Source: an uncultured virus (IMG/VR IMGVR_UViG_3300003629_000002) (lineage: Duplodnaviria > Heunggongvirae > Uroviricota > Caudoviricetes). From it: a stretch of DNA of 64,000 bases. The stretch is from the IMG/VR virus record IMGVR_UViG_3300003629_000002; one strand, written 5' to 3'. The notes beneath the pieces are model-generated. The model was not told where the DNA came from and did not search any database. It worked only from the letters and a program-made list of their open reading frames with translations. Within the stretch, counting starts at the first letter, position 1, and every line of letters begins with the position of its first letter. Of this stretch, positions 3,722-39,235 are shown piece by piece. Made by a program: the position numbers and the translations under genes.

Positions 3722-4456
3722 ATGAACGTATGTATGATAGAGTGCCCTACTTGTGGCGAGGAAAAGAAGCATATAGGTAAACATTGGAGATTCTGCACAT
3801 ACCCATCGCTATCTCTTGGAAAAAGAGAATTGATAGAAGGTATGGTTCTTGGAGATGGGTCTGTTCACAATACTCGAACCAATAACTTCTTTACTGCTAA
3901 TATGACAAATAAGAAGTTTTTAGAATGGTTAGATGATAGTCTTGGATTATTTTCAAATGGGGTGAAACTTAAGGCAACTGGTGAAGAACTTGCTGAAAAG
4001 AATAAATCTAATGGACTAATTGATGTTGTAAATCCAGATGAATATAGAGATTCTTATATTCTGCAATCAAAAAGACACCCATACTTCAATGGGCTGAGAA
4101 ATATATATTATAATAATAAAGGAAAACATTTCCCAAATAATTTGAAACTTACGAAGAATATGGCAAAAATGTGGTATGTTTCTGATGGTTCTTTGATGTG
4201 GGGAGATAAATCTGGAAATGCAGGATTAAGAATAGGTGTTCGGTCACAAATGGATAGAGAGGAATACCTAATATCTTTATTTAATAGCATTGGATTCGAT
4301 ATTAAACTTAATGGATGGAATTTACAGATGGGGAATAAAGAAGCAGAAAGATTTCTTGATTTTCTTGGAGAACCTGTACCGGGGTTCGAGTATAAGTGGG
4401 AAAATAAAAATAATATTGAATACGAAAGACTTAAGATAGAGGCGTACCAATACTGA
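3722..4456 (+). mobile_element. Free-standing LAGLIDADG-like homing endonuclease
   Basis: LIEGMVLGDGSV and MWYVSDGS motifs, N-terminal CPTCG..HW..C; AT-rich and basic; paralogue of 11028-11735. Confidence 0.8.
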
Positions 4457-5808: not shown

Positions 5809-5824
5809 CGAAAGATTTAAATAG
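5809..5824 (+). promoter_or_regulatory. Example of the recurrent viral promoter (BRE + TATA), CGAAAnnTTTAARTA
   Basis: cgaaagatttaaatag; near-identical motif recurs about 25 nt upstream of many ATGs and RNA genes. Confidence 0.85.
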
Positions 5825-5858
5825 TAGTAGTTCTTACTATAGTGTGTACGTGGACGAT

Positions 5859-6016
5859 GGCCGACCGCTACTTCAAGGCAAACCCCAACTCTTTAACAGT
5901 TGTTATTGAAGGTTCGATTCCTTCCGTGGGTGGCTCCCTCGTAGGTTAATTTAACAGCCAATTATGGCAGTTCTCGGACTGCCCTATCAAAAGCGGCATT
6001 CGGTGGCCTTATTTTT
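5859..6016 (+). ncRNA. Circularly permuted tRNA-like RNA (YrlA/Y RNA-like)
   Basis: Order: anticodon-like arm CAACT/AGTTG, T arm GAAGG-TTCGATT-CCTTC, loop-closed acceptor stem, D arm; paired termini; own promoter and T-run. Confidence 0.75.
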
Positions 6017-6109
6017 CCGCGAACGTGCTTGCCCTCGCTCCACTCCTTTCTCCCTTTTCGTTTTTCACAATTCGATAGGGTTAAGTATGTGGACGCTTTA
6101 CATAGAAAT

Positions 6110-8388: not shown

Positions 8389-9777
8389 ATGAAACTCTAC
8401 GGCGAATACAACGAGGCGACGATTCATACGGAGGCTGAACAGGTTGACGCTTCAGCGATGGAGCAGATTTCCGAAATGGTCAATCATCCCGCGTTCGAGG
8501 GAGACTCGGACGTGTCGATTATGCCTGACTTTCATTGGGGCGCAGGTGCAGTAATCGGATTTACGATGCCCGTAAAAGAGCGTGTCGTTCCGAATACCAT
8601 CGGCGTTGACATTGGTTGCGGAATGTTCGCAGTCAATCTTGGCGATATTGAGTTTGACTCACTTGAGTCGCTCGACTCAGCGGTGCGCTCGCGGATTCCG
8701 ACAGGCTTTGATGTCCACTCGCGGAATGACTATCATATGATTAACGATTTCCCGTGGCAAGCCTGCGAGGATAAGTGGCACTCGTTTGCTGAGAGTACCT
8801 CGTTTGCGCTGGAAAATGAAACGCAGTACCCTCGTGAGACGTACTTCGAGAATCTGTGCAAGCGTGTCGGCTACGATATGGGACGCGCAATTAACAGTAT
8901 CGGCACGCTTGGCGGCGGGAATCACTTCATCGAGTTTGGCCGTGATTCGGAGAATCACGTTTGGTGCATCATCCACTCCGGCTCTCGCGGAATCGGTGCA
9001 GAGATTGCTTCCTATTGGCAGGACCGTGCGACTGAAGCGATGAACGAGCGTGCGATGGAGGGAGATATTCCTGACTCTATCGAGCCGTATCTCTCGGATA
9101 ACTGGAAACCGAAGGCTGACAAGATTCGCGCCAACTTTGAGGGAGAGGACATTCAGGAAAAGTTCAATGAATTGTCACAATTCATTCAGTCCACGAAACA
9201 GGATGAACAGAACCGGAACACGGACCTTGACTATCTCGAAGGAGACGAGGCGCACGGATATATTCGGGATATGATATTCGCACAGACCTATGCCAGCGTC
9301 TCTCGAAAGCAGATGGCTATTGCTGTGCTGGATGCTGTGCGTTCCCTGCAAGACGAGCCTGTCCCCGAAGACGAGGCTCCCGCGTGGTGGAAGGACTCCA
9401 TCGAGTCCGTTCATAATTACATCGACTTCGAGGATGCGACCATTCGCAAAGGAGCCTGTCGCGCACACGCCGATGAGCGGCTCGTTGTTCCGCTTAATAT
9501 GAAGTACGGCACTCTGCTTTGTAAAGGCAAAGGACGCGCTGACTGGAACAATTCAAGCGCACACGGCGCTGGTCGTGCAATGAGCCGGACTGCGGCTCAC
9601 GACAAGTTCACCGACGACGACTTCGAGGAACAGACTGAAGGAGTCTATATGTCGAAGAAACCGATGGACGAAATTCCGGGTGCATATAAGGATGCGTCCT
9701 CCATCGAGTCAGCCTTGGGTGAATCTGTCGAGGTAATCGACCGTGTGATTCCGTTCCTCTCAATCAAGGCGGAGTAA
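8389..9777 (+). CDS. rtcB: RNA-splicing/repair ligase RtcB
   Basis: MPDFHWG, GVDIGCG, GTLGGGNHF, HSGSRG, HN, RKGA, SSAHGAGRAMSR, DEIPGAYK. Confidence 0.97.
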   Translation: MKLYGEYNEATIHTEAEQVDASAMEQISEMVNHPAFEGDSDVSIMPDFHWGAGAVIGFTMPVKERVVPNTIGVDIGCGMFAVNLGDIEFDSLESLDSAVRSRIPTGFDVHSRNDYHMINDFPWQACEDKWHSFAESTSFALENETQYPRETYFENLCKRVGYDMGRAINSIGTLGGGNHFIEFGRDSENHVWCIIHSGSRGIGAEIASYWQDRATEAMNERAMEGDIPDSIEPYLSDNWKPKADKIRANFEGEDIQEKFNELSQFIQSTKQDEQNRNTDLDYLEGDEAHGYIRDMIFAQTYASVSRKQMAIAVLDAVRSLQDEPVPEDEAPAWWKDSIESVHNYIDFEDATIRKGACRAHADERLVVPLNMKYGTLLCKGKGRADWNNSSAHGAGRAMSRTAAHDKFTDDDFEEQTEGVYMSKKPMDEIPGAYKDASSIESALGESVEVIDRVIPFLSIKAE

Positions 9778-10447
9778 CTATGACGAGCAAAGAATTGCTT
9801 GAGGAACAGTTGGAGATACTCGCGGAACACCTTGGTATTAATAGTTCCGAGGATATTATCTCCACGTTCATTCAGCAGAAGGTCGTCAAAATTGACGATA
9901 CCATTGTAACCTATCGTGAGTATGAGGATAAGACGAACTACTTCCTCATTACACCGTTCAGTAGTAGGGCAAACGATGGAGAGAGCGCGAGCCTGAATGC
10001 AGGACCGATTAGTCGGCTTGCAGACCACGGCTTCATCGTAAAGGATGTCACGGCTTACGATTCAGTCGAACCGCGTGGCGGCAAATACTCAGACGAGCAT
10101 AAACATCACCCGAGCGCAGATAAGTATATCACGACTAAATTACGATATGTCGGAATGGACCATCCGATAATTGAAATGTATGAGTAAATATGGTGAATTT
10201 CCGGGTGTTTCGGTTACGACAGAATCAGTCGCTCGTAGTCTGACATACACGGAGAAAATGGAGACGATGGTCTGTATTCGGTTCTGCTTAGGTGATGGAT
10301 ACATTGAAACAAACGGTGTGCAGTCGGCGCTTGAGTGTCTCGGCTATTCACCGTATCGAACGATGCCGATGTTTCAAAAGGCGCTCAAAGAATTAGAGGA
10401 GGAAACCGAAACCTTTAAGTAGGACAAGCACAAATAGTAGAACGCGA

Positions 10448-10579
10448 AGGCCCGTGGCCGAATGGTTTAAGGCGCTATATTCCGTCTTTCAAAATTTGGT
10501 TCGCGGAAGCGAAACGATTGAAAGGCTTACTTCACACCTGATGAGTGAGAGATTGCTGGTTCGAATCCAGTCGGGCCTA
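10448..10579 (+). ncRNA. tRNA-like RNA with a 58-nt structured insert at the D/anticodon junction (unpermuted YrlA-like, or tRNA-Ile(GAT) with a non-canonical intron)
   Basis: Acceptor AGGCCCG/CGGGCCT, D arm, T arm GCTGG-TTCGAAT-CCAGT, loop CTGATGA; insert GTCTTTCAA/TTGAAAGGC followed by TTACTTCA. Confidence 0.7.
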
Positions 10580-11027
10580 TGTCGGAACGGAGTTCCCCGA
10601 GCCTGACCGACTGCTGTATCGGGAAATTAGATACGCTGTTCAACTCAATTCAAAACTTACTTGTTCGTGAAGGGGTCTTGAGGAGCGTATTATTATCGGG
10701 GCGAGCGGTCCTCCTCCTTCACATTCGCAATCACGGTTAGTGGAAAGACTTATTACTGAATAGTGCATACAATTATATATGCATCAGGTAATGTTACGCT
10801 ATCCGTTACTGATTGACGGGGAGTTTCAGAATATGTTCTTTCGGGAGAATTGGAAGACAAATCAGGAGAGTGGCTATATCTCCTTTGGGAACGACCCGAC
10901 CAACGACCACGGATACCCGCAGAACGATGTTATTAGAGTCCCGAAGCACAATGTTCTCGGATGGGTTGAAATCGAGTCAGAGGACTAAACCGAAAAGTTT
11001 AAGTAGAAGGGGTTCCTATTAGGTAAT

Positions 11028-11735
11028 ATGTATAATTCTTGCGATTCGTATAATACCTGTAAGTCCTGTGGTAAGGATTTTAAGAAGATTTCTTTACATT
11101 GGGCAAGTTCTGATTGTAGGTATCCTAAATTGGATAAAGATACAGAGAGTGTTATTAAGGGGTTGCTTGCAGGTGATGCAACTATAGGCAAGGATGGAAG
11201 ATTATCTGTATATACAACTAATCCAATTTTTGCAGAATTTATATACAGACAGTTAATATCTATAGTTCCAGTAACAGTAAGTATTAGAGATGCAGATAGT
11301 AATGAATTAATGAAAAGAGAACTTTTTGAATTAACATTGCCTAAACATAAGTTTACTAAGAAATTAAGGGATGATTGGTATAATCCAAAGAAAATACCTA
11401 AGAATACGGTTGTGGATAAATTATTTACTAAGTATTGGTATGTTTGTGATGGAAATTTAAATAGTAAATATGAGGCATCTATCACAACATCTTCCAAAAA
11501 TATTGAATTTGTAGAAAAATCATTTAATCAATTGCCATTTGAGTATAAAATTAAAAATATCGGCACAACTGAGTTAAGTAATAATGATAGATACAGAATA
11601 TATATTAGTAGTCGGGAAAATGTTGAGAAATTTCTGAATTACCTCGGGGAACCTGTACCCGGATTTGAATACAAGTGGGAAATAGACGGTAATAAGAGAA
11701 AATCTATGAAGCAAGATGTGTACCAAAAGATTTAA
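11028..11735 (+). mobile_element. Free-standing LAGLIDADG-like homing endonuclease
   Basis: VIKGLLAGDAT and YWYVCDGN motifs; LGEPVPGFEYKWE shared with 3722-4456; AT-rich. Confidence 0.8.
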
Positions 11736-15614: not shown

Positions 15615-15801
15615 GCAAGTGCCACGTCTGCGGTGAGACGTTCACGCGGAAGATAAATCTCGGGAGTGCTGGCACGTTTAACGTAAGCGATAGTGATACT
15701 GTCTGCTATTCGGGAATGTACGATAGGCTTTACTTCCACCAAAACCGAAAGGTTTAAGTAACCCGAGTCCCAATAGTAGTATGCCGTTAACGACGGTACG
15801 A

Positions 15802-15865
15802 GGGAGTCGGATTCATCATTGACAAATGGGTTTTGATGCTCACCTAAAGTAGCATCCCGACTCCC
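15802..15865 (+). ncRNA. Structured RNA in the leader of the Ro60 gene
   Basis: 9-bp GGGAGTCGG/CCGACTCCC stem enclosing two hairpins. Confidence 0.5.
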
Positions 15866-15888
15866 AATTTCAACCGTGGTGATACAAA

Positions 15889-16710
15889 ATGGGAATTAAC
15901 TTCAACGACACGAAAGAGACAGTCGCAGAACGAACCGAGAAGGACAACTATGAGGGAGGAACGGCCTATGAGCCTGACTCGCCCGAGGTTGCGCTGACGA
16001 AGAACGTCCTGACGAATCTGCTTGAAGACTCGTTCTACGAGTCGGCAGAGGACTCGATGGATGCCGTCAAGCGTGAGTTCGAACGAGTTGCAGACTCTAA
16101 TCCAGAGTTTGTCCTGAAGTTGGCTACGTATGCGCGACAGTCTGAGAATCTTCGGCAAGTCCCTCAACTGTTGCTCGTACTCGCGGCCAACGACGCTCGG
16201 ACGAAGGGATACGTTCGTAGTTACGCTGAGTCGATTATTCAGCGTGCAGATGAACCCCTCGAAGTTCTTGCGATGCAGGTTTCCCTGTACGGCAAGTCCA
16301 TCCCGAATCCGCTTGAGAAAGGTATCGAGGATGCACTTCATAATTTCAACGAGTATCAATTCGCAAAGTGGGACCGTCCTTCGAGAGAATGGCAGTACCG
16401 CGACTTGCTGAACTTAGTCCACCCGCGTCCTCGGGATGATGAGAGAGATGCAATCTTTGAGCAAATTGCTCTCGGAGAACTGGACTCTCATCCCGATGTA
16501 GATTCGCTCAAGCAGTCCGATACGTGGGAGGATGAAATGTCTGATGCCGGTAAAGAGGACCGGGATAAGGCAGAGGTTTGGCGCGAACAACTCCGCGAAA
16601 ATGATGAAGGCTACTCGATGCCTATCTTTGCACGGGTTCGTAACGTTCGAAATATGCTTGATGAAGGACTCTCCGGTGAGGAAATCTTCAATTACGATAT
16701 TGAAGAATGA
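15889..16710 (+). CDS. Ro60/TROVE-domain protein, N-terminal part
   Basis: NYEGGTAY, DSFYES, KLATYAR, IQRADEP, FNEYQFAKW, DLLNLVHPRP, TWE, ARVRNVRN. Confidence 0.9.
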   Translation: MGINFNDTKETVAERTEKDNYEGGTAYEPDSPEVALTKNVLTNLLEDSFYESAEDSMDAVKREFERVADSNPEFVLKLATYARQSENLRQVPQLLLVLAANDARTKGYVRSYAESIIQRADEPLEVLAMQVSLYGKSIPNPLEKGIEDALHNFNEYQFAKWDRPSREWQYRDLLNLVHPRPRDDERDAIFEQIALGELDSHPDVDSLKQSDTWEDEMSDAGKEDRDKAEVWREQLRENDEGYSMPIFARVRNVRNMLDEGLSGEEIFNYDIEE

Positions 16711-17411
16711 GCAATTATATTTCAGATAAAGAATTAATTGATGATATAAGGTTAGTTTCATCTGAAATGGGAGAAGTTCCTTCAAGACGCCAGTATAATG
16801 AGCGCGGAAATTATTCTTATAACACGCATTGTCGGAGGTTCGGCTCTTGGAATAGTGCGCTTGAAAAGTCCGTTGGCTCCATAAATAAATATCAGAATAT
16901 TTCTGAAGAAGAATTATATAGCGAAATAGATAGATTATACGAAGAATTAGGCCGACCGCCAATGCAAGAAGATATGAAAAGAATTGGCGAATATAGTCCT
17001 GATACATACCACTATAACTTAGATGGGTGGAGTCAAGCAGTTATAGATGCAGGATATGAACCTATTACAAGAGGTTTTAAAAGTGGAAAGGAGCATCCTG
17101 ATTGGAAAGGTGGCTCTATTGACTATTATGGGCCTAATTGGAGTTCGGTTAGAAAAGAGATTCTTGAAAGGGATAGCAATTGTTGCAGGATATGCTCAGA
17201 ATCAGAGGAGCGACTTTGCGTCCATCATATTAATCCGCGCTCAGAATTTGTTAAAGATGGTGAATACAATTACGAAAAAGCAAACAAGAAGGAAAATCTT
17301 ATAACGCTGTGTGATTCTTGCCATATGAAGTTTGAGGGAAAATTCGCTAACAGTAGCCATACGGAGTTCGAGAATGAAGCGAAAGATTTAAGTAGTACCA
17401 AAACGAAATAA
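16707..17411 (+). mobile_element. HNH homing endonuclease with two N-terminal HNH-associated repeats, inserted in the Ro60 gene
   Basis: RRFGSWNSAL repeat, WKGG, LERD..CRIC, VHHI, NLITLCDSCH; AT-rich. Confidence 0.9.
17380..17395 (+). promoter_or_regulatory. Viral promoter embedded in the HNH 3' end, upstream of the Ro60 C-terminal half
   Basis: cgaaagatttaagtag at leaderless spacing from ATG 17417. Confidence 0.7.
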
Positions 17412-17416
17412 GTAAT

Positions 17417-18157
17417 ATGAAAGATAACAATATTTTCGGAGATACGTCCGAACGAGTTGTACGAAATAGTGGCCTATATCCTTTTAGATATTATCAGGCT
17501 TATAAGGCTATTAAAGAATCACCTGATACACCAAATGATAAGAGGGTATTAGAATGGCTCGAAAACGCAATGCGCGTTGCAACAGAGAATCTGCCGGACG
17601 TATTCGAGAATACGTTTACAGCAGTTGACGTGTCTGGTTCGATGCGTCACGCTGTCTCCGGTGATTCGGAACTCACTTGCAAGGAGATTGCCACGCTGTT
17701 CGGTGCGATGATGCTTGAGCGCGACTCGGATGTAGGCGTGTTTGCAAGCAACTTCGCTGAGGTAAACGCTGACCCGCGCAATCCACTTGTCACCAATGCG
17801 GAGAAGTTACAAGGTTCGCGTGTCGGCGGCTCGACGAATGGCTGGAAGGTGCTTCGTGGGCTGAGAAAAGAGAACCGCTCTTACGACAGGGTGGTAGTCT
17901 TCACGGATATGCAACTCTGGAACGACTCTCCGTACCAGAACTCCTCGTTCAAGGACGAGTGGGATGCCTACAAGCAACAGAATCCTGATGCAAGCCTATA
18001 TCTGATTGACCTTCAGCATTATGGCGACCTCGTTACGCCAGAGGGGGCGCAGGATGTATATAATATCTCCGGCTGGTCTGAGAAGGTTCTCGACTTCATC
18101 GAGGCCATTGAGAATGTCGATGGGATGATTCAAGAGATTGAATCGGTAGAGCCGTAA
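17417..18157 (+). CDS. Ro60/TROVE protein C-terminal part with vWA domain
   Basis: SGLYPFRYYQAY, AVDVSGSM (MIDAS), GGSTNG, VVVFTDMQ, ISGWSEKV. Confidence 0.9.
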   Translation: MKDNNIFGDTSERVVRNSGLYPFRYYQAYKAIKESPDTPNDKRVLEWLENAMRVATENLPDVFENTFTAVDVSGSMRHAVSGDSELTCKEIATLFGAMMLERDSDVGVFASNFAEVNADPRNPLVTNAEKLQGSRVGGSTNGWKVLRGLRKENRSYDRVVVFTDMQLWNDSPYQNSSFKDEWDAYKQQNPDASLYLIDLQHYGDLVTPEGAQDVYNISGWSEKVLDFIEAIENVDGMIQEIESVEP

Positions 18158-19000: not shown

Positions 19001-19885
19001 ATGCGAGACAAAATTAGAAATACAATTTACGAGATTGAGACGAGCGAGAATATCCACGCAATCTCTTGTCGCTCGTTTGGGAGTCATATGATGAACCTCG
19101 ACTCGGACGAGTCAGACTACGATGCGTTTCTCGTCTTCGCGCAAAGTGCGCCGGATTATGCAACTATCGGCGGCTACGAGGATACGCTGACCATTAAGCG
19201 AGGCGAGATTGACTTCCAATGCTGGAACGTCAAAAAGTTTGGCGAACTACTGAATGACTCAAATCCCACGACTCTTGAGTTTCTGAACTCGCCAGTTACG
19301 TACTTCGAGAATCCCGAATTTATCAGCACGCTGGATTCGTTGCGGGAAATGGCGAACGAGAACTTCAAGCCGATTGCGCTCTACTACCATTACCGTAGTA
19401 TGGCGGAGTCGAACTATATGAAGTACCTCAAACCGTGCATCTACGATACGGAGGGAGAGCGATACCCTATCGAGAACGAGGATGACCACTACTGGCATAC
19501 CGGCATTGGTGAGATTCCGAAAGACTCGGATGAGTACGAGGCTGGCAACTTGAAGCAGACTGTCAAGCGTAATCTCTACATTATGCGAGCCATCCTTCAC
19601 GCGAAGCACATCCGCAAGACGCACGAGATGCCGACGATGAACTTCCCTGCATTCGTTGATTCACTCGATGAAGGTGACTTGGGGCTTACGCGAGCAGACA
19701 AGGATAGGCTGAAAAAGTGTATCCATCGAAAGCGTAACGCGAATGCGTATGAGGAAATCGGGAATCCGTTCGAGGATTTCATCGAGGCCGAGTTATCGCG
19801 TGAACTTGACCCGGAAAAACATCTCGACGGAGAGATGAATACTGAGCAGATTAACGAGTTCATCAAGAATGGTATTGTTCGCTGA
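19001..19885 (+). CDS. Pol-beta superfamily nucleotidyltransferase (RlaP/YcgL-like)
   Basis: GSHMMNL...SDYD, WNVKKF..LL..SNP..LEFL.SP, YHYRSMA. Confidence 0.85.
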   Translation: MRDKIRNTIYEIETSENIHAISCRSFGSHMMNLDSDESDYDAFLVFAQSAPDYATIGGYEDTLTIKRGEIDFQCWNVKKFGELLNDSNPTTLEFLNSPVTYFENPEFISTLDSLREMANENFKPIALYYHYRSMAESNYMKYLKPCIYDTEGERYPIENEDDHYWHTGIGEIPKDSDEYEAGNLKQTVKRNLYIMRAILHAKHIRKTHEMPTMNFPAFVDSLDEGDLGLTRADKDRLKKCIHRKRNANAYEEIGNPFEDFIEAELSRELDPEKHLDGEMNTEQINEFIKNGIVR

Positions 19886-27051: not shown

Positions 27052-30000
27052 TCATAGTTCAGACTCCACGTAGTTCTCAGCGTCTTCGAGGAACTGCTCG
27101 ATGTCTTCCTCGGTCCATTCCGCATCGTCGTCCATCTCGATAAGAATCTCACGAGCCGCCTCCTGCTTCTTATCAAGATTATTGTCAACACGAGTCGTCA
27201 GCACTTGCTCATCACGAGAGCCGTCGCGGTAGAACGTCAGACCCTTAATCGTTTGGCCGAGTTCGTCTTCGTCAAGCGCGAGCATAAAGGCTTCGTGAAC
27301 GTCGTTCCGGGTTGCGTCATTCGGCGCATTGATTGTCTTACTGATACCGGAATCAACGAACTCCTGAAACGCTCTTTGCATCATCCCGTGTTCGCGTGAC
27401 GAGAGGTCGTTCGTTGTTACGAAGACCTTTGCAATATTTTCGGGAATATCGAGGTCGTCAACTCCGTCGAACTCGTTGTTTCGCATCTTTGTTTCAGCAT
27501 CTTCCTTGATGCTCTCCACATCGAGTCCGTTCGCCTCAAGCGTCTTGAGGAAGTAGTCGTCAAATTCGACGAGCATATCGCTTCCCTGAATGTCGTCTCC
27601 GACGTTCTTGAAGTTTGCGACGTTGTACGCAGGTTCACAACCGCCGGTCGTGTTACCAATCATTGAAGTTGTCCCGGTCGGAGCGATTGTCGTCGTATTG
27701 TGATTGCGAATCGGGAAGCCATCTTCCCAATCGTCAGCACTTTCGTAAGTATGCCCCTCGAACCACTCACGGTACTTCTGCGGGTCGGCGTACTTCGACT
27801 CGTCCCAGTAGTCGAACGAGCCGCGCTCTTGAGCGAGTTCGTGACTCATCTGGACAGACTCCTTATCAATGAAGCCCATCACGACACGGGCCGCCTGATA
27901 CGAGTTATCGCTTCCATACGGGATTCCCATCTGGTAGAGCATCTGCGCCCATCCCATAATCCCGAGGCCAATCTTTCGCTGACCCTTCACGCGCTCTGAG
28001 ATTTGTTCAAGCGGGAACTCGCTTTGGGTTACAACGTTATCGAGGAACCGAGTGCCGTGTCGGGTAATCATCTGCAACTGCTCCCAATCAACGTTCTCCT
28101 CGCAGTAGTCCGTTACTGCGTTCTTCTCGAACTGATAATCGTAATCGACAGTTTTCTTCCATTCCTCGAACGGAATAGAATCCGACTTCATCATCAGGCT
28201 CAGATTAACGTGCCCGAGGTTGCACGCCTCGAACGCGGAGAGCGGCTGTTCGGCGCATCCACGATTGACATAGCCTTCAGTAACCCACGTATCTGAACCA
28301 GAACAGTAGAGGTCAAAGACAGTTTCTTTTTCCTCAAGAACCTCAATAGATTCGACAGTTGCTTTCCACAGACCGCCGGTTAGCATAAAGTCAGTTCGTA
28401 GCGTTTCAAGACGTTCGCCTTTACTTGTGTGGTAATTTGACAGTCGAGTGTTTCGAACAAATGTGTCAGCAGACTCGCCAGCGATGTGAATATTGTAGAG
28501 AGTGTACGTCTCATCATTACCAATTTCACTTCCATCACCCCGAGTTCCGCCACGATTCTTTCTCTTGTCTTCGTAAATCCGAGCGTGCATACCCACATTG
28601 AGGGCAAGATTTCGGATGTTGTTAGCCAACTTTTCCGAAGACGTAGACCAGCGAATCTGAGGCCGGTTAGAAGACATACTAACACTACCATCAGTAGCCA
28701 ACATACCGTCAAGGAACCCTTGGACTCCCGCCCGAGTCTTAAATTCAGTCACATCCACACTTTTTTCGTAACTGTATTCGGGGTTGAGATTGTGGTCTTC
28801 AATGACTTTCTCTGCGTCTGCAATCCAAAGCTTGACCGACTTGTTTCGACCGCTGGTATCAAGCTCTCCGACATTGTAACCAGCATCCTCAAACAGTTCT
28901 CGGACGTTCTGATTGAATGTGGTATCATCTTCACTCGAACTAATTGAAAGTCGATTGTTCACATCAATTGTCTTCTGTGTGTATCCCCCATCTCCGGTGA
29001 GGATACCACGTCGGAGTTGATACTTGTAATCTTCTTCAGTCCCTTTACTCTCAAGCGTTGATGGTTCAAGTCGAATCTTATCACCCTCAGAAATATCTCG
29101 GAGAGGAGTGTTTTTATCCACACTCTTTTTCCCGTCAAGAACGTGGAAGCGATGGTCTTCTGTCGCCTTAACACTACCACCATCACTTAGATTGACTTGA
29201 TAGACCTCTTTATCCTCAAAGGTTAGAATCTCATCAACAGATTCGGTTCCATAAACAGTTGAAATTTTATTTCCTTCGCTAACGTTTTCGGCACGAATTA
29301 GTCCGTTAGGAGTGTTAACGAGCGTGTCGCCCGTGACGCACGGATTGGTCGCATTGATTGCATGTTGCGGGTACTCGTCTGCGTCGAAGGAATGCTTGCG
29401 GTTCGTCTCGTCGTAGTGGAACAGACCCGGCTCACCATTGCGCCACGCTCCGTCGATAATGAGGTCCCAAATGAAGCGAGCGGGAAGCGTCATTTCTTCG
29501 CCAACCTCAAGACTGAAGCGAGACTGGTCCCACTTTTCTGCGAGCGGAATCTTCTCGTCGGTGTCGTAATCAGGGTGTGCGACGATGGTATCAGCGTAGT
29601 CTCGCCACAGGTTCTCGTCTACAAGTTCCATCCCAACCTTATCCTCAGCATTCGCCTGCTGGAAGTCTTTCGGGTTGTCAGCGTACTCGGGAGAGTAGAA
29701 CTTCTTCGTTTCTTCGAGAACTGCCTGCGGCTCCGAGAAGTCGGACTGCGGGTCGTAGATTGCGTAGTCTTCGTCGTTGCGAACAGCCTCGATAAATTCA
29801 TCCGTGAGAGCGACAGAGATATTGAAGTTATCGAGGACACCCTCGACACGTTTTGCTGTAATGAATCGACCAATGTCGGCGTGGTCAATTCGCATAATAC
29901 CCATCTGTGCCCCTCGTCGCTTTCCTCCCTGCTTCACCGTTTCGCACGTCTCGTCGTAGAGACGCATAAACTGCATTGGACCGCTGGTTTCAGATTCGGT

Positions 30001-30483
30001 TGACCGAATGTACGCTCCCTTTGGCCGAAGATGACTGAAACTGTAGCCAACTCCGCCGCCACTCTTGAAAATCTGACCAGCGTGCTTCACCGTATCGAGA
30101 ATGGACTCTCGACCAAACTCGTCTTCCTCTGCCATCGAATCGCCCGGCTCAAGGACGAAGCAGGCCGAGAGTTGCTGAAGGCTCGCTCCTGCGTTCATTA
30201 GAGTCGGGCTGTTCGGCATAAACTGAAGCGTACTCATCATATGCTCGAACTCGTCGGCCCACATCTCCTGAGCCACTTCATCGCTTTCCGCACCAGCGAC
30301 GTTCTCTGCGACTCGATTGAATAGGTCTTCCGGGTCCTCACCTTCGAGGAGATACCGTGCTGGAAGAATATTGTGATATGCGTTTCCAGTCATTCGTTCC
30401 TTGACCGATTCAGTCTCGTCTACCGAGAGAATCGGCATCTCTACTTCTACTTCTTTCTCTGATGCTTGTGTTTGTTGAGTCAT
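27052..30483 (-). CDS. nrdJ: Adenosylcobalamin-dependent (class II) ribonucleotide reductase with intein
   Basis: PNSPTLMNAG, LSACFV, GGGVG, QGGKRRGA, NP/CAEQ, CNLG, TIAPTGT, ISKTIN, KGLTFYRDGSR. Confidence 0.95.
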   Translation of the reverse strand: MTQQTQASEKEVEVEMPILSVDETESVKERMTGNAYHNILPARYLLEGEDPEDLFNRVAENVAGAESDEVAQEMWADEFEHMMSTLQFMPNSPTLMNAGASLQQLSACFVLEPGDSMAEEDEFGRESILDTVKHAGQIFKSGGGVGYSFSHLRPKGAYIRSTESETSGPMQFMRLYDETCETVKQGGKRRGAQMGIMRIDHADIGRFITAKRVEGVLDNFNISVALTDEFIEAVRNDEDYAIYDPQSDFSEPQAVLEETKKFYSPEYADNPKDFQQANAEDKVGMELVDENLWRDYADTIVAHPDYDTDEKIPLAEKWDQSRFSLEVGEEMTLPARFIWDLIIDGAWRNGEPGLFHYDETNRKHSFDADEYPQHAINATNPCVTGDTLVNTPNGLIRAENVSEGNKISTVYGTESVDEILTFEDKEVYQVNLSDGGSVKATEDHRFHVLDGKKSVDKNTPLRDISEGDKIRLEPSTLESKGTEEDYKYQLRRGILTGDGGYTQKTIDVNNRLSISSSEDDTTFNQNVRELFEDAGYNVGELDTSGRNKSVKLWIADAEKVIEDHNLNPEYSYEKSVDVTEFKTRAGVQGFLDGMLATDGSVSMSSNRPQIRWSTSSEKLANNIRNLALNVGMHARIYEDKRKNRGGTRGDGSEIGNDETYTLYNIHIAGESADTFVRNTRLSNYHTSKGERLETLRTDFMLTGGLWKATVESIEVLEEKETVFDLYCSGSDTWVTEGYVNRGCAEQPLSAFEACNLGHVNLSLMMKSDSIPFEEWKKTVDYDYQFEKNAVTDYCEENVDWEQLQMITRHGTRFLDNVVTQSEFPLEQISERVKGQRKIGLGIMGWAQMLYQMGIPYGSDNSYQAARVVMGFIDKESVQMSHELAQERGSFDYWDESKYADPQKYREWFEGHTYESADDWEDGFPIRNHNTTTIAPTGTTSMIGNTTGGCEPAYNVANFKNVGDDIQGSDMLVEFDDYFLKTLEANGLDVESIKEDAETKMRNNEFDGVDDLDIPENIAKVFVTTNDLSSREHGMMQRAFQEFVDSGISKTINAPNDATRNDVHEAFMLALDEDELGQTIKGLTFYRDGSRDEQVLTTRVDNNLDKKQEAAREILIEMDDDAEWTEEDIEQFLEDAENYVESEL
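28258..29340 (-). mobile_element. 361-aa intein with LAGLIDADG endonuclease and atypical C-terminus (…YVNRG/C)
   Basis: Starts CVTGDT after ATNP; block B ATEDHRF; GILTGDG and FLDGMLATDG; VFDL; extein resumes CAEQPL. Confidence 0.9.
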
Positions 30484-30587
30484 TGTTATGTCACCGTCAA
30501 ATGCGAGAGCCATCCCTATGTGAATTACGATTCTCGCATCCAACTTCGGGATATTAGTGTATGCGTTCCGGGTACTTAAGCCTTTCG

Positions 30588-31943: not shown

Positions 31944-32016
31944 GGGCGATTGGCCGAATGGATAAGGCGCTGGTTTGCGGAACCAGAGATTGCGGGTTCG
32001 ATTCCTGCATTGCCCA
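31944..32016 (+). tRNA. tRNA-Arg(GCG)
   Basis: Cloverleaf, anticodon arm CTGGT-TTGCGGA-ACCAG. Confidence 0.9.
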
Positions 32017-32722
32017 CTCCTCCTCTCTTTGGTTGAGGGGATAACGCCGCCGAGTGGCGTGAATGCAAGTTCTCGGTAAATTGCGCGTCCATTTGCAAGA
32101 ATGGGCGGAAAGTAAGTTAAGGCTCGGTTTACATCGAGAGATGGTGTAGTCTTCGCTAACCACGAGGGCGGTATTAGCCAAGTACCGTATCGCAGACGGC
32201 TGGTGTCTGGCACAAAGACTTGGGACCTACAATGATACAGAAGGGAGATAAATCAGAAATGGCTGTCGCAAATGCGTTTACCCAATTTGGGACCGCAGTT
32301 TCGAAGCCGCTATCTGACAACCTCCCGTATGACTTCATTGTAGATTATAATGGCCTTCACAGAGTTCAGGTCAAAACTGCGCGGGAGCGTAGTGATAATA
32401 AGAACTCTATTATCGCAGACCTCACACGAAGCAGGCATAACTACTCTACTGGTCACAGTAAAGAGTATTATAGTGATGATGAGATTGACTTCTTCGCTAT
32501 TTATTGGCCGAAACGTGGGGAGGTATACTTGTTCGACTTTGACGAAGTTGGCAAGAACGCTGTAACTATTTGCGTAGGCGATGTTTATAACCCCAACCAG
32601 CAACGTGTTGGCGAGGATTATCTCCTTGAAGTACGGTTGGATTCATTAACACAGTCGTAAAAGGTCCGTCCCAACACTACGGGCGTAGTTTGACAGACTA
32701 CTGGTGGGCTGGTCTTCCACAC
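32017..32722 (+). ncRNA. Unknown multi-hairpin RNA (about 250 nt without insert) interrupted by an endonuclease-bearing putative intron
   Basis: Consecutive hairpins flank the ORF; pairing across it (GGACCT/AGGTCC, TGGTG/CACTA). Confidence 0.55.
32232..32660 (+). mobile_element. PD-(D/E)XK endonuclease (I-Ssp6803I / PDDEXK_5-like)
   Basis: KGDKSE, P....PYDFIVD, RVQVKT, Y...EIDFFAIY. Confidence 0.9.
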
Positions 32723-35253: not shown

Positions 35254-35737
35254 GTCGTGGTAGTTCAATTAGTAGAACGCCGTGCTGTTAAGGACATATG
35301 AACACAAAAGACAAAGGTGATTTGGCTGAAGTATCCGTTGTAAAACGGGTAAAGGAGTTAGGTTATACGGTATCAATTCCATTCGGTGATAATGCACCAT
35401 ATGACCTGATATACGATGATGGCCAATTACACAAAGTCCAAGTGAAATATGGTAGACTATCTGAAGGAAAAGTTAAAGCAAAACTTGAGCGGACACAAAG
35501 AAATCAAGGAAGACACGCTCATAAACCGTATGATTCGTCTGAAGTTGACGAATTTGCAATTTATTGTCCGGGGACAGATGAAGTTTACCGTATATCAGTA
35601 ACAGATGGCCAAAGACGGAAGTCTATCTTCGTGTTGAGGAAGCGAAGAAGGCTGATTCAAGTATACGTTGGGCATCTGAATATCGTTTATAGTCCGCAGA
35701 TACACGGAGGTTGGAGGTGCAAGTCCTTCCCGCGACG
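35254..35737 (+). tRNA. tRNA-Asn(GTT) with a 411-nt BHB intron (35291-35701) at position 37/38
   Basis: Exons 35254-35290 and 35702-35737 join into a cloverleaf; strict BHB motif. Confidence 0.92.
35298..35692 (+). pseudogene. Intron-encoded PD-(D/E)XK endonuclease with an apparent -1 frameshift near 35608
   Basis: KGDLAE, PFGDNAPYDLI, KVQVK, VDEFAIYCP; the -1 frame continues PKTEVYLRVEEAKKADSSIRWASEYRL* and stops at the intron stem. Confidence 0.85.
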
Positions 35738-35800
35738 TTCTTTTGCACAATTTTCTTTATCGAAAGATTTATATAGTATAAACACATACACTAATATACG

Positions 35801-35875
35801 CTCAGGATAGCGCAATTTGGTTGACGCACTCGCCTGTAGAGCGAGGCTATGCAAGTTCAAATCTTGCTCCTGAGA
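35801..35875 (+). tRNA. tRNA-Tyr(GTA)
   Basis: CTCGC-CTGTAGA-GCGAG; archaeal C1:G72. Confidence 0.9.
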
Positions 35876-38077: not shown

Positions 38078-38152
38078 AGGCCGATAGCCAAACTCGCGTA
38101 AGGCACGGGACTTTTAATCCCGCGATTGTGGGTTCGAATCCCACTCGGCCTA
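38078..38152 (+). tRNA. tRNA-Lys(TTT)
   Basis: CGGGA-CTTTTAA-TCCCG. Confidence 0.9.
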
Positions 38153-39101: not shown

Positions 39102-39235
39102 GCGTCCGTGGCCCAATCAGGTACGGCACTCCGCTGATAAAAGAGATAATCAGATGAATATCCCAATATTAATTCGGCATCTGAGTATCACTTGCAGTAA
39201 CGGAGCGATTGTTGGTTCAAATCCAACCGGGCGCA
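39102..39235 (+). tRNA. tRNA-Ile(GAT) with a 60-nt intron (39140-39199) at position 37/38
   Basis: CTCCG-CTGATA|...|A-CGGAG; BHB with one A.G mismatch. Confidence 0.88.

Follow-up and report, generated by a model that had tools for sequence, protein, structure and literature searches.

A tRNA-shaped RNA with an internal stem module in a relative of haloarchaeal virus HGTV-1, probably a circularly permuted Y RNA

Does the 132-nt gene at positions 10448..10579 (+ strand) of an uncultured virus encode a tRNA precursor from which an intron is removed, or a stable RNA that keeps its insert? The gene lies in IMG/VR record IMGVR_UViG_3300003629_000002, the 64,000 nt of which that were analysed are here called the window, and which represents a salt-lake relative of haloarchaeal virus HGTV-1; the latter carries the same 132-nt gene, annotated there as 'tRNA Asp (gtc) + Intron'. 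Ro60 and Y RNAs have been recorded in animals and bacteria, and the bacterial form YrlA is regarded as a mimic of tRNA whose acceptor end is sealed. We conclude that 10448-10579 probably specifies a Y RNA that is stable, tRNA-shaped and does not decode, and that corresponds to a circularly permuted YrlA with its insert retained.

A tRNA-shaped RNA with an insert in its anticodon-like stem

The whole of 10448-10579 is matched by the Rfam tRNA model (42.7 bits vs. a cut-off of 29), although 71 nt occupy a spot where the model expects 13; none of the 32 ARAGORN calls in the window corresponds to this interval. The parts come in the order acceptor, D, anticodon-like, T, acceptor. The RNA's own ends form the open acceptor stem, whose 5' strand (10448..10454) pairs with 10572-10578 in 7/7 positions; the discriminator A10579 follows, and CCA is not encoded. 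The D arm (10457..10473), to which the closest sequence is the virus's own tRNA-Arg at 31944, and G26 (10474) precede the two outer pairs of the anticodon-like stem (10475..10476, CU with AG at 10548-10549, i.e., C10475-G10549 and U10476-A10548). Directly after these comes a 58-nt insert (10477-10534), which consists of a 5' linker, AUAUUCC (7 nt, 10477..10483), a 43-nt hairpin, P1 (10484..10526), which is a candidate Ro60-docking module, and a 3' linker, UUACUUCA (10527..10534), a hallmark of the open-acceptor family described below. The inner anticodon-like hairpin, CAC-CUGAUGA-GUG (10535..10547), and the variable loop AGAUU with the T arm (10550..10571; T arm 10555-10571) complete the RNA, all parts being on the + strand. 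The 5' linker was read directly from the sequence, P1 comes from the minimum-free-energy fold (a basal stem of 9 bp, the internal loop AAUUUGG / ACGA, an apical stem of 5 bp and a GGAA loop), and the D arm, outer pairs, variable loop and T arm follow the Rfam alignment. A tRNA-like module with D arm, T arm and elbow is present (Rfam tRNA over positions 1-71), and the elbow marks that can be read are U8, A14, the D-loop GG, the T loop UUCGAAU and the A15/U48 pair.

These results bear out the normal tRNA order and open acceptor stem of the original prediction, which had also given the size of the insert correctly but had placed it at the D/anticodon junction, whereas it lies two pairs inside the anticodon stem; removal of the insert gives CUCAC-CUGAUGA-GUGAG on direct reading, as had been stated. 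By nearest-neighbour energies, a local hairpin (UUCAC/GUGAG, -41.9 kcal/mol) is more stable than the split stem of the tRNA type (-35.9), and single-sequence fold z-scores are modest (-2.27 for 10448-10579 and -1.42 for the HGTV-1 copy); both points weigh against the reading favoured here. The heptamer TTACTTC on its own occurs 13 times in the window vs. 8.3 expected, which is not significant. An archaeal BRE/TATA-type promoter, CGAAACCTTTAAGTA (10407..10421, + strand), ends 27 nt before the first base of the RNA, a spacing like that at the array tRNA genes (28-33 nt); the promoter consensus, CGAAANNTTTAARTA, is found 35 times in the window vs. 0.19 expected.

Of 35 base pairs compared between the window and HGTV-1, 19 are identical, 3 carry one-sided changes, 11 show compensatory changes of both partners and 2 are disrupted. 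P1 contains five of the compensated pairs and the inner anticodon-like stem three, which are all of its pairs (GCU/AGC in HGTV-1). The tRNA bodies are nearly identical, and the inner loop reads CUGAUGA (GAU) in the window and AUCUGGA (CUG) in HGTV-1. Within the insert, only the first AU of the 5' linker is shared, and the AUUU of the P1 internal loop and the CGAUUG are conserved. Together with the family-wide covariation reported below, the compensatory changes in the HGTV-1 orthologue indicate that this architecture is more than a product of chance. They also argue, along with the intact promoter and the recurrence of the architecture by Ro60 genes in distant lineages, against a decaying tRNA gene, perhaps a tRNA-Arg duplicate, that was disrupted by an insertion and has no function. 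The body is indeed most like the virus's tRNA-Arg(GCG) (51 bits with model R1), and the accessible part of a re-analysis of HGTV-1 reports several tRNA pseudogenes (PMC13532342), but we regard decay as highly improbable.

HGTV-1 was the only close viral relative in the collections searched. A pattern scan with the 5' half of the RNA gave no match in genome contigs and HGTV-1 only among viral contigs, and a scan with the 3' end of the insert gave 27 viral loci, namely HGTV-1 and 26 without a match to model R1. RtcB neighbourhoods were compared in 22 sources (the window, the HGTV-1 record and 20 RtcB loci from IMG/VR), of which just the window and HGTV-1 showed an insert-bearing match of this type; longer tRNA-like matches in L006/L012 and L017 did not look related and were set aside. 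Contigs of three DNA sequencing runs, compared with this stretch, added no variants, and one contig that bridged the insert region proved to hold a different tRNA with a long variable arm.

Splicing of the insert

In both viruses, excision of the insert would leave an anticodon stem of 5 bp and a 7-nt loop that has U33 and, at position 37, a purine. Such a canonical arm is what an intron would leave, and it counts against a retained insert, as does the fact that the host splices tRNAs: a splicing-endonuclease domain is carried by 4/4 archaeal controls, among them Haloferax, which represents the host lineage. RtcB, encoded upstream of the RNA, is the archaeal splicing ligase too. These observations, the HGTV-1 annotation and the lack of a tRNA-Ile in ARAGORN's list for the window favour a pre-tRNA with a non-canonical intron at position 28/29, from which the host endonuclease and RtcB would make a decoding tRNA-Ile(GAU) (tRNA-Gln(CUG) in HGTV-1). 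A 10448-10579 of this kind would resemble the archaeal intron-containing tRNAs, of which the window has an example, the canonical tRNA-Ile(GAU) at 39102..39235 with an intron at 37/38, in its interruption of about 60 nt in the anticodon arm and in its archaeal setting with RtcB.

The resemblance does not extend to the junctions, position or conservation of the insert. The junctions, at which no proper bulge-helix-bulge had been recognised in the original prediction either, form 3/8 of the required pairs in the window and 5/8 in HGTV-1, whereas the control at 39102-39235 forms 7/8 by the same score, which was applied to the insert junction and the control; a window-wide scan at 7/8 gives dozens of chance motifs. 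To our knowledge, euryarchaeal endonucleases require the canonical motif, and no splicing-endonuclease domain was found by Pfam in the 71 ORF translations of the window that were searched or in the whole HGTV-1 genome. Moreover, a proper tRNA-Ile(GAU) with a canonical intron is already provided by the control itself, G37 is unusual in tRNA-Ile, and the anticodon is not conserved between orthologues (GAU vs. CUG) whose bodies are nearly the same, whereas the insert is conserved as a structure. Bacterial homologues share the insert site and have inner loops of varying length (5, 7 and 8 nt in the examples read), and we know of no archaeal splicing in Bacteria. The lack of a splice motif, the lack of an endonuclease among the sequences searched and the same design where archaeal splicing does not exist thus lead us to propose that the insert would be retained. 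We consider the non-canonical intron improbable, and the sequence evidence makes it unlikely that 10448-10579 is spliced into an ordinary tRNA-Ile.

The annotated GUC (Asp) anticodon of the HGTV-1 gene falls in the linker and the base of P1, in different registers in the two viruses and with no supporting stem, and was rejected. The HGTV-1 'tRNA-Asp with intron' is probably an annotation error and not a decoding tRNA. Hammerhead and C/D-box readings of CUGAUGA were likewise rejected, having no Rfam match and resting on a sequence that is not kept in HGTV-1.

Relatives beside Ro60 genes and the relation to YrlA

The RNA was predicted to be near rtcB, and a gene for the RtcB RNA ligase (8389..9777, + strand; Pfam PF01139, E = 9.9e-63) indeed lies 0.7 kb upstream. 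Downstream on the + strand are the N-terminal half of Ro60 (TROVE, 15889..16710; Pfam TROVE, E = 2.1e-17), 90% identical to HGTV-1 residues 1-267, the C-terminal half (vWA, 17417..18157; Pfam vWA_Ro60, E = 3.4e-10), 82% identical to HGTV-1 residues 266-507, and the RNA-repair-associated nucleotidyltransferase RlaP (19001..19885; Pfam PF10127, E = 3.6e-35); the two Ro60 halves are separated by an HNH homing-endonuclease ORF (16707-17411; Pfam HNH_repeat, E = 9.5e-34). The RNA is on the same strand as the Ro60 gene in both viruses, 5.3 kb upstream of it in the window and 2.8 kb in HGTV-1; the neighbourhood criterion given in the accessible part of Chen et al. is the same strand and a distance within 4 kb (PMC4201824). 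The greater distance in the window and the split of its Ro60 gene count against the Y RNA reading.

The same design, i.e., an open acceptor stem and an insert at the same place that ends in UUACUUC, occurs elsewhere. We delimit the class by a 7-bp acceptor stem that the two ends of one RNA form with each other, rather than with neighbouring array units, and by an insert that is 55-75 nt long, follows the outer 2-3 pairs of the anticodon stem and ends in (U/C)UACUUC. The insert of 10448-10579 falls within the class by length and ending and aligns with those of its relatives. In 27 rsr loci from public genome assemblies (26 bacterial by title and one archaeal MAG), a long match to model R1 was found in 16, and 14 were kept as open-acceptor members, which flank controls set apart from tandem-YrlA artefacts; in the flanks of 10448-10579, the T-loop motif is absent up to 110 nt upstream and the D-arm motif up to 80 nt downstream. 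About 35-620 nt separate the bacterial open-acceptor RNAs from the matched part of the Ro60 gene downstream. The tRNA model is the sole Rfam match to open-acceptor RNAs and leaves the insert as a gap.

Across 18 members, 94.4% of the cells are paired compared to 68.8% in shuffles, a level reached by 0/500 shuffles, and the covariation score falls from 0.73 to ≤0.20 when the partners are slid. Changes on both sides are seen in 7/7 pairs of the acceptor stem, the second outer pair (10476/10548) is U-A, G-C or C-G among relatives, and TTACTTC is present in 13/18 aligned members, the other 5 having a one-letter variant. The outer-stem covariation in bacterial relatives suggests that a three-way junction may be the working form. 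A covariance model, R2, built from 14 bacterial sequences with the viral ones excluded, ranks 10448-10579 first in the window (45.7 bits; next best 34.9), a score that owes much to the tRNA body, with an ordinary tRNA-Met in metagenome contig L051 at 48.3 bits and tandem YrlA arrays at up to 62 bits. Separately, a Streptomyces locus (L052) gave 44.9 bits with R2 over 203 nt.

At the bacterial open-acceptor loci, the insert shares a sequence module with the terminal stem of neighbouring YrlA-type Y RNAs, and the bacterial insert consensus, CGUUCUC / GCAGUGAG ... GGGGUUACUUC, recurs in L165, where five tandem Y RNAs that precede a Ro60 gene carry it at their ends. Scans with CCAGCAGTG...GTTACTTC gave 54 viral and at least 120 genomic loci, about the chance number, and were discarded; among the matches listed, these loci were in long open, codon-like sequence, except L165. 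In L051, the module GCUG-UUCU-CUGG / CCAG-CAG-UG ... GGG-UUACUUC forms an internal hairpin in each of two open-acceptor tRNA-like RNAs and the terminal stem in each of two adjacent Y-like RNAs; all four RNAs lie directly upstream of a Ro60 (TROVE) gene.

The window itself contains a YrlA-like RNA, a permuted twin with a closed acceptor hairpin (the 5859 RNA; 5846..6030, + strand, ends approximate; 5' leader GACGAUG ... UACUUCA), with a promoter at 5809-5823. It scores 17.1 bits against Rfam YrlA, far under the cut-off of 69, and has an HGTV-1 orthologue in which 4/5 pairs of the anticodon-like stem are compensated. Its leader parallels the insert: ACGAUUG in the 3' strand of the insert hairpin is followed in the linker by UACUUCA starting 14 nt after the first base of the motif, and ACGAUGG in the leader by UACUUCA 15 nt after. 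UACUUCA had been predicted to stand just before the anticodon-like hairpin in both RNAs; the sequence is shared (5869-5875), but in the 5859 RNA it lies 10 nt before that hairpin and not directly before it. The broader claim, that the genome carries two circular permutations of one RNA class, gains support from the parallel between insert and leader and, more directly, from L051.

YrlA RNAs have a Ro60 motif, GNCGAAN0-1G, in the 5' leader, according to the accessible part of Chen et al. 2014 (PMC4201824). P1 contains ANCGAUUG, which resembles this motif only approximately: in 10513-10520 (AACGAUUG; AGCGAUUG in HGTV-1), the agreement covers N-C-G-A and the last G but neither the first G nor the second A. 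In bacterial open-acceptor members, GCAGUGAG stands where Rfam aligns the YrlA motif, and the Rfam YrlA consensus CUAc is aligned to UUAC of the linker; within 10380-10680, the Rfam YrlA model (RF02553) had no match at E up to 10. With YrlA, 10448-10579 shares a tRNA-like module (D arm, T arm, elbow nucleotides), a long irregular stem in which the strand leading into that module bears a CGA-containing motif, and a conserved (C/U)UAC junction, as well as its location on the same strand as the Ro60 gene and next to rtcB. It differs from YrlA, whose permuted order runs from the T arm through a closed acceptor hairpin to the D arm and whose long stem contains the termini, in having the part order of a real tRNA, an open acceptor with a discriminator base, and a Ro60-type stem that ends in a tetraloop and branches off the anticodon stem.

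A Y RNA of normal order is already on record: in Yrn1 of Deinococcus radiodurans, as described in the accessible part of the same study, the D-like and T arms are in the opposite order to YrlA (from the 5' end), the anticodon-like arm is closed, and the terminal stem is the Ro60 site, with nucleotides 7-12 protected (PMC4201824). Compared by description only, 10448-10579 differs from Yrn1 in that its terminal helix is a plain 7-bp acceptor stem and its conserved Ro60-type module is internal. RNase P cuts the YrlA of Mycobacterium smegmatis in vivo, and CCA is added to it (PMC4201824, accessible part), so that a Y RNA with a tRNA-like 3' end, CCA and an open acceptor-like stem has a precedent. 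In the cut YrlA, the acceptor is opened by cutting a closed hairpin and the original termini are kept, whereas in 10448-10579 the open acceptor is encoded, the other end is sealed and there is a single pair of ends.

The M. smegmatis case also lends some weight to a scheme with two products, in which a cut outside any bulge-helix-bulge would free a Ro60-binding hairpin RNA, the tRNA or its halves being rejoined by RtcB. P1 is a self-contained hairpin between single-stranded linkers, and both RtcB and RlaP are encoded nearby; however, no known nuclease site was recognised, the sequence nowhere requires cutting, and the three-way junction suggested by the outer-stem covariation points to an uncut RNA. 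We judge that two products are no likelier than the intron, and that one retained, stable Y RNA is the better account.

Proposed working and implications

In a Y RNA of this kind, the parts of YrlA would be permuted such that the terminal irregular stem, with its putative Ro60-docking site, is closed into the hairpin P1. The RNA would be transcribed from its own promoter, as the consensus suggests; RNase P and tRNase Z would trim its ends and CCA would be added, in line with the intact acceptor stem, elbow and discriminator; and the insert would be kept unspliced. The virus's Ro60 may then bind P1 and the UUACUUC junction. More speculatively, and by analogy with bacterial Ro60/Y RNA/RtcB operons, the tRNA-like body might link Ro60 to the RtcB and RlaP encoded nearby, for the checking or repair of the virus's 30-odd tRNAs during infection.

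Open-acceptor RNAs would amount to a second Y RNA topology, with a free tRNA-like acceptor end, that is common beside bacterial Ro60 genes; we found no description of this form in the searchable literature. The Ro60/Y RNA/RtcB set would also reach an archaeal virus, whereas no TROVE gene was found in the model haloarchaeon among our controls. With a free acceptor end, the purpose of the tRNA-like half of Y RNAs becomes directly testable on a natural molecule (CCA addition, charging, factors), and an infection system for HGTV-1 in Halogranum is described in the accessible part of the re-analysis (PMC13532342). A tentative and rather doubtful possibility is that open-acceptor Y RNAs undergo tRNA-like maturation, acquire CCA and are aminoacylated. 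In that case they would tether Ro60 to a genuine aminoacyl-tRNA look-alike able to engage elongation factor, synthetases or the ribosome. RNA surveillance by Ro60 would thereby be linked, directly and physically, to the translation apparatus, and a haloarchaeal virus would bring this link, with its own Ro60, into a lineage whose model species has none.

Architecture, conservation and the intron question

The RNA at 10448-10579 is matched end to end by the Rfam tRNA model (42.7 bits, cut-off 29), with 71 nt at the anticodon arm compared to the 13 expected in that alignment, and it is absent among the 32 ARAGORN tRNA calls in the window. Direct reading gives a 7-bp acceptor stem (AGGCCCG/CGGGCCU, discriminator A), a normal D arm, a T arm with the loop UUCGAAU and a variable loop AGAUU. 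The anticodon-like stem begins with two outer pairs (C-G and U-A), after which a 58-nt insert (10477-10534) is located on the 5' strand alone, consisting of a 7-nt linker, the 43-nt hairpin P1 (9-bp basal stem, internal loop AAUUUGG/ACGA, 5-bp apical stem, GGAA loop) and the linker UUACUUCA. Three inner pairs (CAC/GUG) and the loop CUGAUGA follow 3' of the insert. The coordinates and letters of the original prediction for this RNA were all correct; the UACUUCA that it described as shared with the permuted, YrlA-like RNA at 5846-6030 (the 5859 RNA) is present there (5869-5875), although 10 nt ahead of the anticodon-like hairpin rather than just before it. Two results count against the proposed fold: the energy model favours a local hairpin (5 bp, 9-nt loop; −41.9 kcal/mol) rather than the split stem (−35.9 kcal/mol), and the z-scores for single-sequence folding are modest.

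The haloarchaeal myovirus Halogranum tailed virus 1 (HGTV-1) shares 74-83% identity with the region and carries at the equivalent site a 132-nt gene annotated as 'tRNA Asp (gtc) + Intron'. The annotated GUC anticodon was rejected, given that it sits in the linker, in a register that differs between the two viruses. Of the 35 pairs of the proposed structure compared between the two copies, 19 are identical, 3 are changed on one side, 11 are changed on both sides yet still paired (P1, 5; inner stem, 3; T stem, 2; acceptor stem, 1), and 2 are unpaired. The two copies have the internal-loop segments AUUU and CGAUUG and also the UUACUUC linker in common; the apical loop is GGAA in the window vs. 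GUUUU in HGTV-1, and the 'anticodon' loop is CUGAUGA (which would read Ile-GAU) vs. AUCUGGA (Gln-CUG). Judged from this comparison, the RNA does not behave like a decoding tRNA, because its body is kept but its identity changed between close relatives, nor does the insert behave like a dispensable intron, because its fold is kept through compensation. The availability of a single close viral relative counts against these conclusions.

Several further features were observed in these RNAs. The acceptor stem (10448-10454) starts with A1-U72 and matches the tRNA-Lys(UUU) of the virus (38078-38084) in 5 of 7 positions; a lysyl-tRNA synthetase is reportedly encoded by HGTV-1 (passages of PMC8651126). 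The HGTV-1 copy is separated from its promoter by an extra leader of ~75 nt (L001, the HGTV-1 genome, 6525-6598), absent from the window, with an 8-bp hairpin whose loop contains another UACUUCAAG after GACGA. In the permuted twin (5846-6030 in the window, ~1320-1500 in HGTV-1), the anticodon-like loop is CUUUAAC in the window vs. CUGUAAC in HGTV-1, 4 of the 5 pairs in its stem are compensated, and the leader pairs with a segment ~45 nt past the D arm, with a variable hairpin in between.

In both viruses, excision of the insert would produce a flawless anticodon arm, and the host is able to splice tRNAs, with RtcB as the splicing ligase; both points count against retention of the insert. A single junction restores the anticodon stem, and there 3 of the 8 defining pairs of the bulge-helix-bulge motif are present in the window and 5 of 8 in HGTV-1, bearing out the lack of a proper motif that had been noted originally, and the D stem would have to unfold for even those pairs. 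As a positive control, the window encodes at 39102-39235 a tRNA-Ile(GAU) that Rfam detects (tRNA model, 47.6 bits) and ARAGORN does not; its 60-nt intron interrupts the canonical 37/38 site, and its motif is near-canonical, 7 of the 8 pairs being present. The virus therefore already has a regular tRNA-Ile(GAU). A splicing-endonuclease domain was found neither in the 71 ORF translations of the window (Pfam) nor in the whole HGTV-1 genome, and was present in 4 of 4 archaeal control genomes. We infer that the insert is retained.

Relatives at Ro60 loci

A pattern from the 3' part of the 10448-10579 RNA had a sole find, the metagenome contig L051, read on the minus strand. First in the row are two open-acceptor tRNA-like RNAs, that is, with a 7-bp acceptor stem formed by their own ends and an insert in the 5' strand of the anticodon stem (142 and 138 nt; 33.5 and 54.9 bits with the search model R1), followed by two RNAs that lack a tRNA body and have their 5' and 3' termini paired with each other, tRNA-Ile and tRNA-Met, and a 608-aa TROVE protein. 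The inserts of both open-acceptor RNAs end in UUACUUCA, and their hairpin is composed of the same letters as the terminal stem in the two RNAs that follow, the shared module being GCUG, a U-rich bulge and CUGG, with CCAGCAGUG ... GGGUUACUUC on the opposite strand. Circular permutation is directly visible at this one locus, next to a Ro60 gene. Promoter- and terminator-like sequences, read by eye, make the contig look bacterial.

Matches to the L051 TROVE protein in the genome collection comprised 27 loci with the Ro60 gene, rsr (by title, 26 bacterial and 1 archaeal MAG). Full-length R1 matches (117-158 nt) were identified at 16 of the 27, and 14 open-acceptor members were kept, with 7/7 acceptor pairs in 13 and 6/7 in one. 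L250 and L238 were dropped; their matches bridge neighbouring YrlA units of a tandem array, as shown by a D-arm motif 6-12 nt 3' of the match. Among the 14 kept members, a downstream D-arm motif was found in none (0/14), and a T-loop motif within 110 nt upstream was absent in 13. The 27 loci contain 38 copies of TTACTTC on the strand of rsr vs. 3 on the opposite strand, and in 20 of these loci it lies upstream of rsr at a distance of up to ~700 nt. In L260, a MAG labelled Methanotrichaceae archaeon (affiliation from the label), an open-acceptor RNA (1890-2021; 61 bits with R2, a model built from the 14 bacterial sequences and no others) with 7/7 acceptor pairs lies upstream of the Ro60 gene. 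Rfam has no dedicated family for such insert-bearing RNAs; in seven rsr loci, its tRNA model matched across the insert-bearing RNA in 4 (41.8-52.2 bits), with 66-71 nt unaligned in the three displayed alignments, one of these four matches (L235) was a second, lower-scoring candidate and not the RNA kept from that locus, and L252 and L240 had no match at the threshold used. CCG follows the discriminator in 7 of the 14 bacterial members (L252, L246, L236, L249, L237, L242 and L253), a sequence that might represent either partial encoding of the CCA end or a signal for processing.

In an 18-sequence MAFFT alignment, where 19 pairs were counted (acceptor, part of P1, and T), 94.4% of the cells are paired vs. 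68.8% in shuffled alignments (0 of 500 as high), both-side changes occur in 16 of the 19 pairs, and the covariation score is 0.73, compared to at most 0.20 with partners slid. All 7 acceptor pairs covary, with pair 1:72 being A-U in 7 members, G-C in 6, U-A in 2 and U-G in 2; the outer two pairs of the anticodon-like stem vary by member (CU/AG, CG/CG, CC/GG). R2 assigned 62.7 bits to L051-B, 48.9 to the HGTV-1 copy, 45.7 to 10448-10579 and 34.9 to the top ordinary tRNA of the window, with weak discrimination (48.3 bits for the L051 tRNA-Met and up to 62 for tandem-YrlA spans).

Kinship with YrlA and genomic setting

Five Y RNAs are arrayed in tandem ahead of a TROVE+vWA_Ro60 gene in the Saprospiraceae assembly L165, and two of these match Rfam YrlA with scores (47 and 39 bits) under its cut-off (69). 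In the L165 Y RNAs, the 5' (CAGCAGUGAGG ... GGGGUUACUUCG) and 3' (CCCCGCCCG.UUUUCUCUG) end sequences are the two strands of the consensus derived from the bacterial inserts. In the Rfam YrlA alignment, UUAC falls on the conserved CUAc, and GCAGUAAG on gGCgaAUG, the motif (GNCGAAN0-1G) regarded as the Ro60 contact in the searchable text of Chen et al. (PMC4201824). At this position, the haloviral inserts carry AACGAUUG and AGCGAUUG, and the leader of the 5859-type RNA carries GACGAUG (window) and GACGAAG (HGTV-1); these are similar but not identical to the YrlA motif, an imperfection that counts against the Y RNA reading. The same searchable text describes Deinococcus Yrn1, with an arm order opposite to that of YrlA, and Mycobacterium smegmatis YrlA, which RNase P cleaves and to which CCA is added; these therefore are precedents for a normal-order Y RNA and for a tRNA-type 3' end.

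On the same strand as the 10448-10579 RNA are RtcB (8389-9777), an HD-domain protein and RNase H, the Ro60 homologue (TROVE 15889-16710, vWA part 17417-18157) and an RlaP nucleotidyltransferase (19001-19885). The archaeal promoter consensus CGAAANNTTTAARTA has 35 copies in the window vs. 0.19 expected; one ends 27 nt 5' of the RNA, a spacing like that of the array tRNA genes, and there are also copies ahead of the 5859 RNA and of the Ro60 gene. Counting against the Y RNA reading, the Ro60 gene is 5.3 kb away and is interrupted by a free-standing HNH homing-endonuclease ORF (16707-17411), with both halves intact (273 and 246 aa, with a short overlap, IFG; the break falls near HGTV-1 residue 267). 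In HGTV-1, Ro60 is undivided, a single 509-aa ORF. No TROVE gene was found in the haloarchaeal control genome, and the virus thus seems to bring the complete system with it.

What seems to be a conserved leader of the Ro60 mRNA (15775-15888, ~110 nt) contains two CCGA(G/C)UCCC segments, each a potential pairing partner of its GGGAGUCGG, and may serve as a regulatory switch. Directly 3' of the 10448-10579 RNA, ~150 nt (10580-10725) consist of blocks near-identical to HGTV-1, with no codon pattern and no T-run terminator between the RNA and the blocks, and include a long hairpin (GUGAAGGGG, bulge UCUU, GAGGA ... UCCUC CUCCUUCAC) in which compensatory changes occur. The stretch may represent either a second RNA made in the same transcript or, for the ORF at 10779, a structured leader. 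Selfish elements are abundant in the window: a ribonucleotide reductase with a LAGLIDADG-domain intein (27052-30543, minus strand), free LAGLIDADG ORFs (3722-4456 and 11028-11735, one shortly 3' of the RNA), and PD-(D/E)XK endonuclease ORFs within the tRNA array (32220-32660 and 35298-35810).

A probable Y RNA with a second topology

The interpretation that best fits the 10448-10579 RNA is a YrlA-type Y RNA of a second topology: its ends lie at the acceptor stem, and the Ro60-type stem is sealed and branches off the anticodon stem. The structure and its conservation, the relationship to Ro60-linked RNAs and the promoter are evident from the sequences; Ro60 binding is predicted, the ends would be matured and extended by CCA, and the RNA might be charged. 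Within the full-text-searchable literature, which sets the scope of our claim of novelty (passages of PMC8651126, PMC13532342, PMC4201824, bioRxiv 10.1101/312249 and PMC7824862), neither an open-acceptor Y RNA nor Y RNAs in HGTV-1 are described. The HGTV-1 passages mention tRNA genes, one with an intron (PMC8651126, PMC13532342). In the searchable supplementary files of Chen et al. (PMC4201824), Sorangium, with YrlA downstream of rsr, is the only one present of six organism names, and neither Halogranum nor a halovirus is named. By analogy with bacterial Ro60/Y RNA/RtcB loci, the RNA could act as a scaffold joining Ro60 with tRNA-handling or repair enzymes, which would serve a virus with more than 30 tRNA genes.
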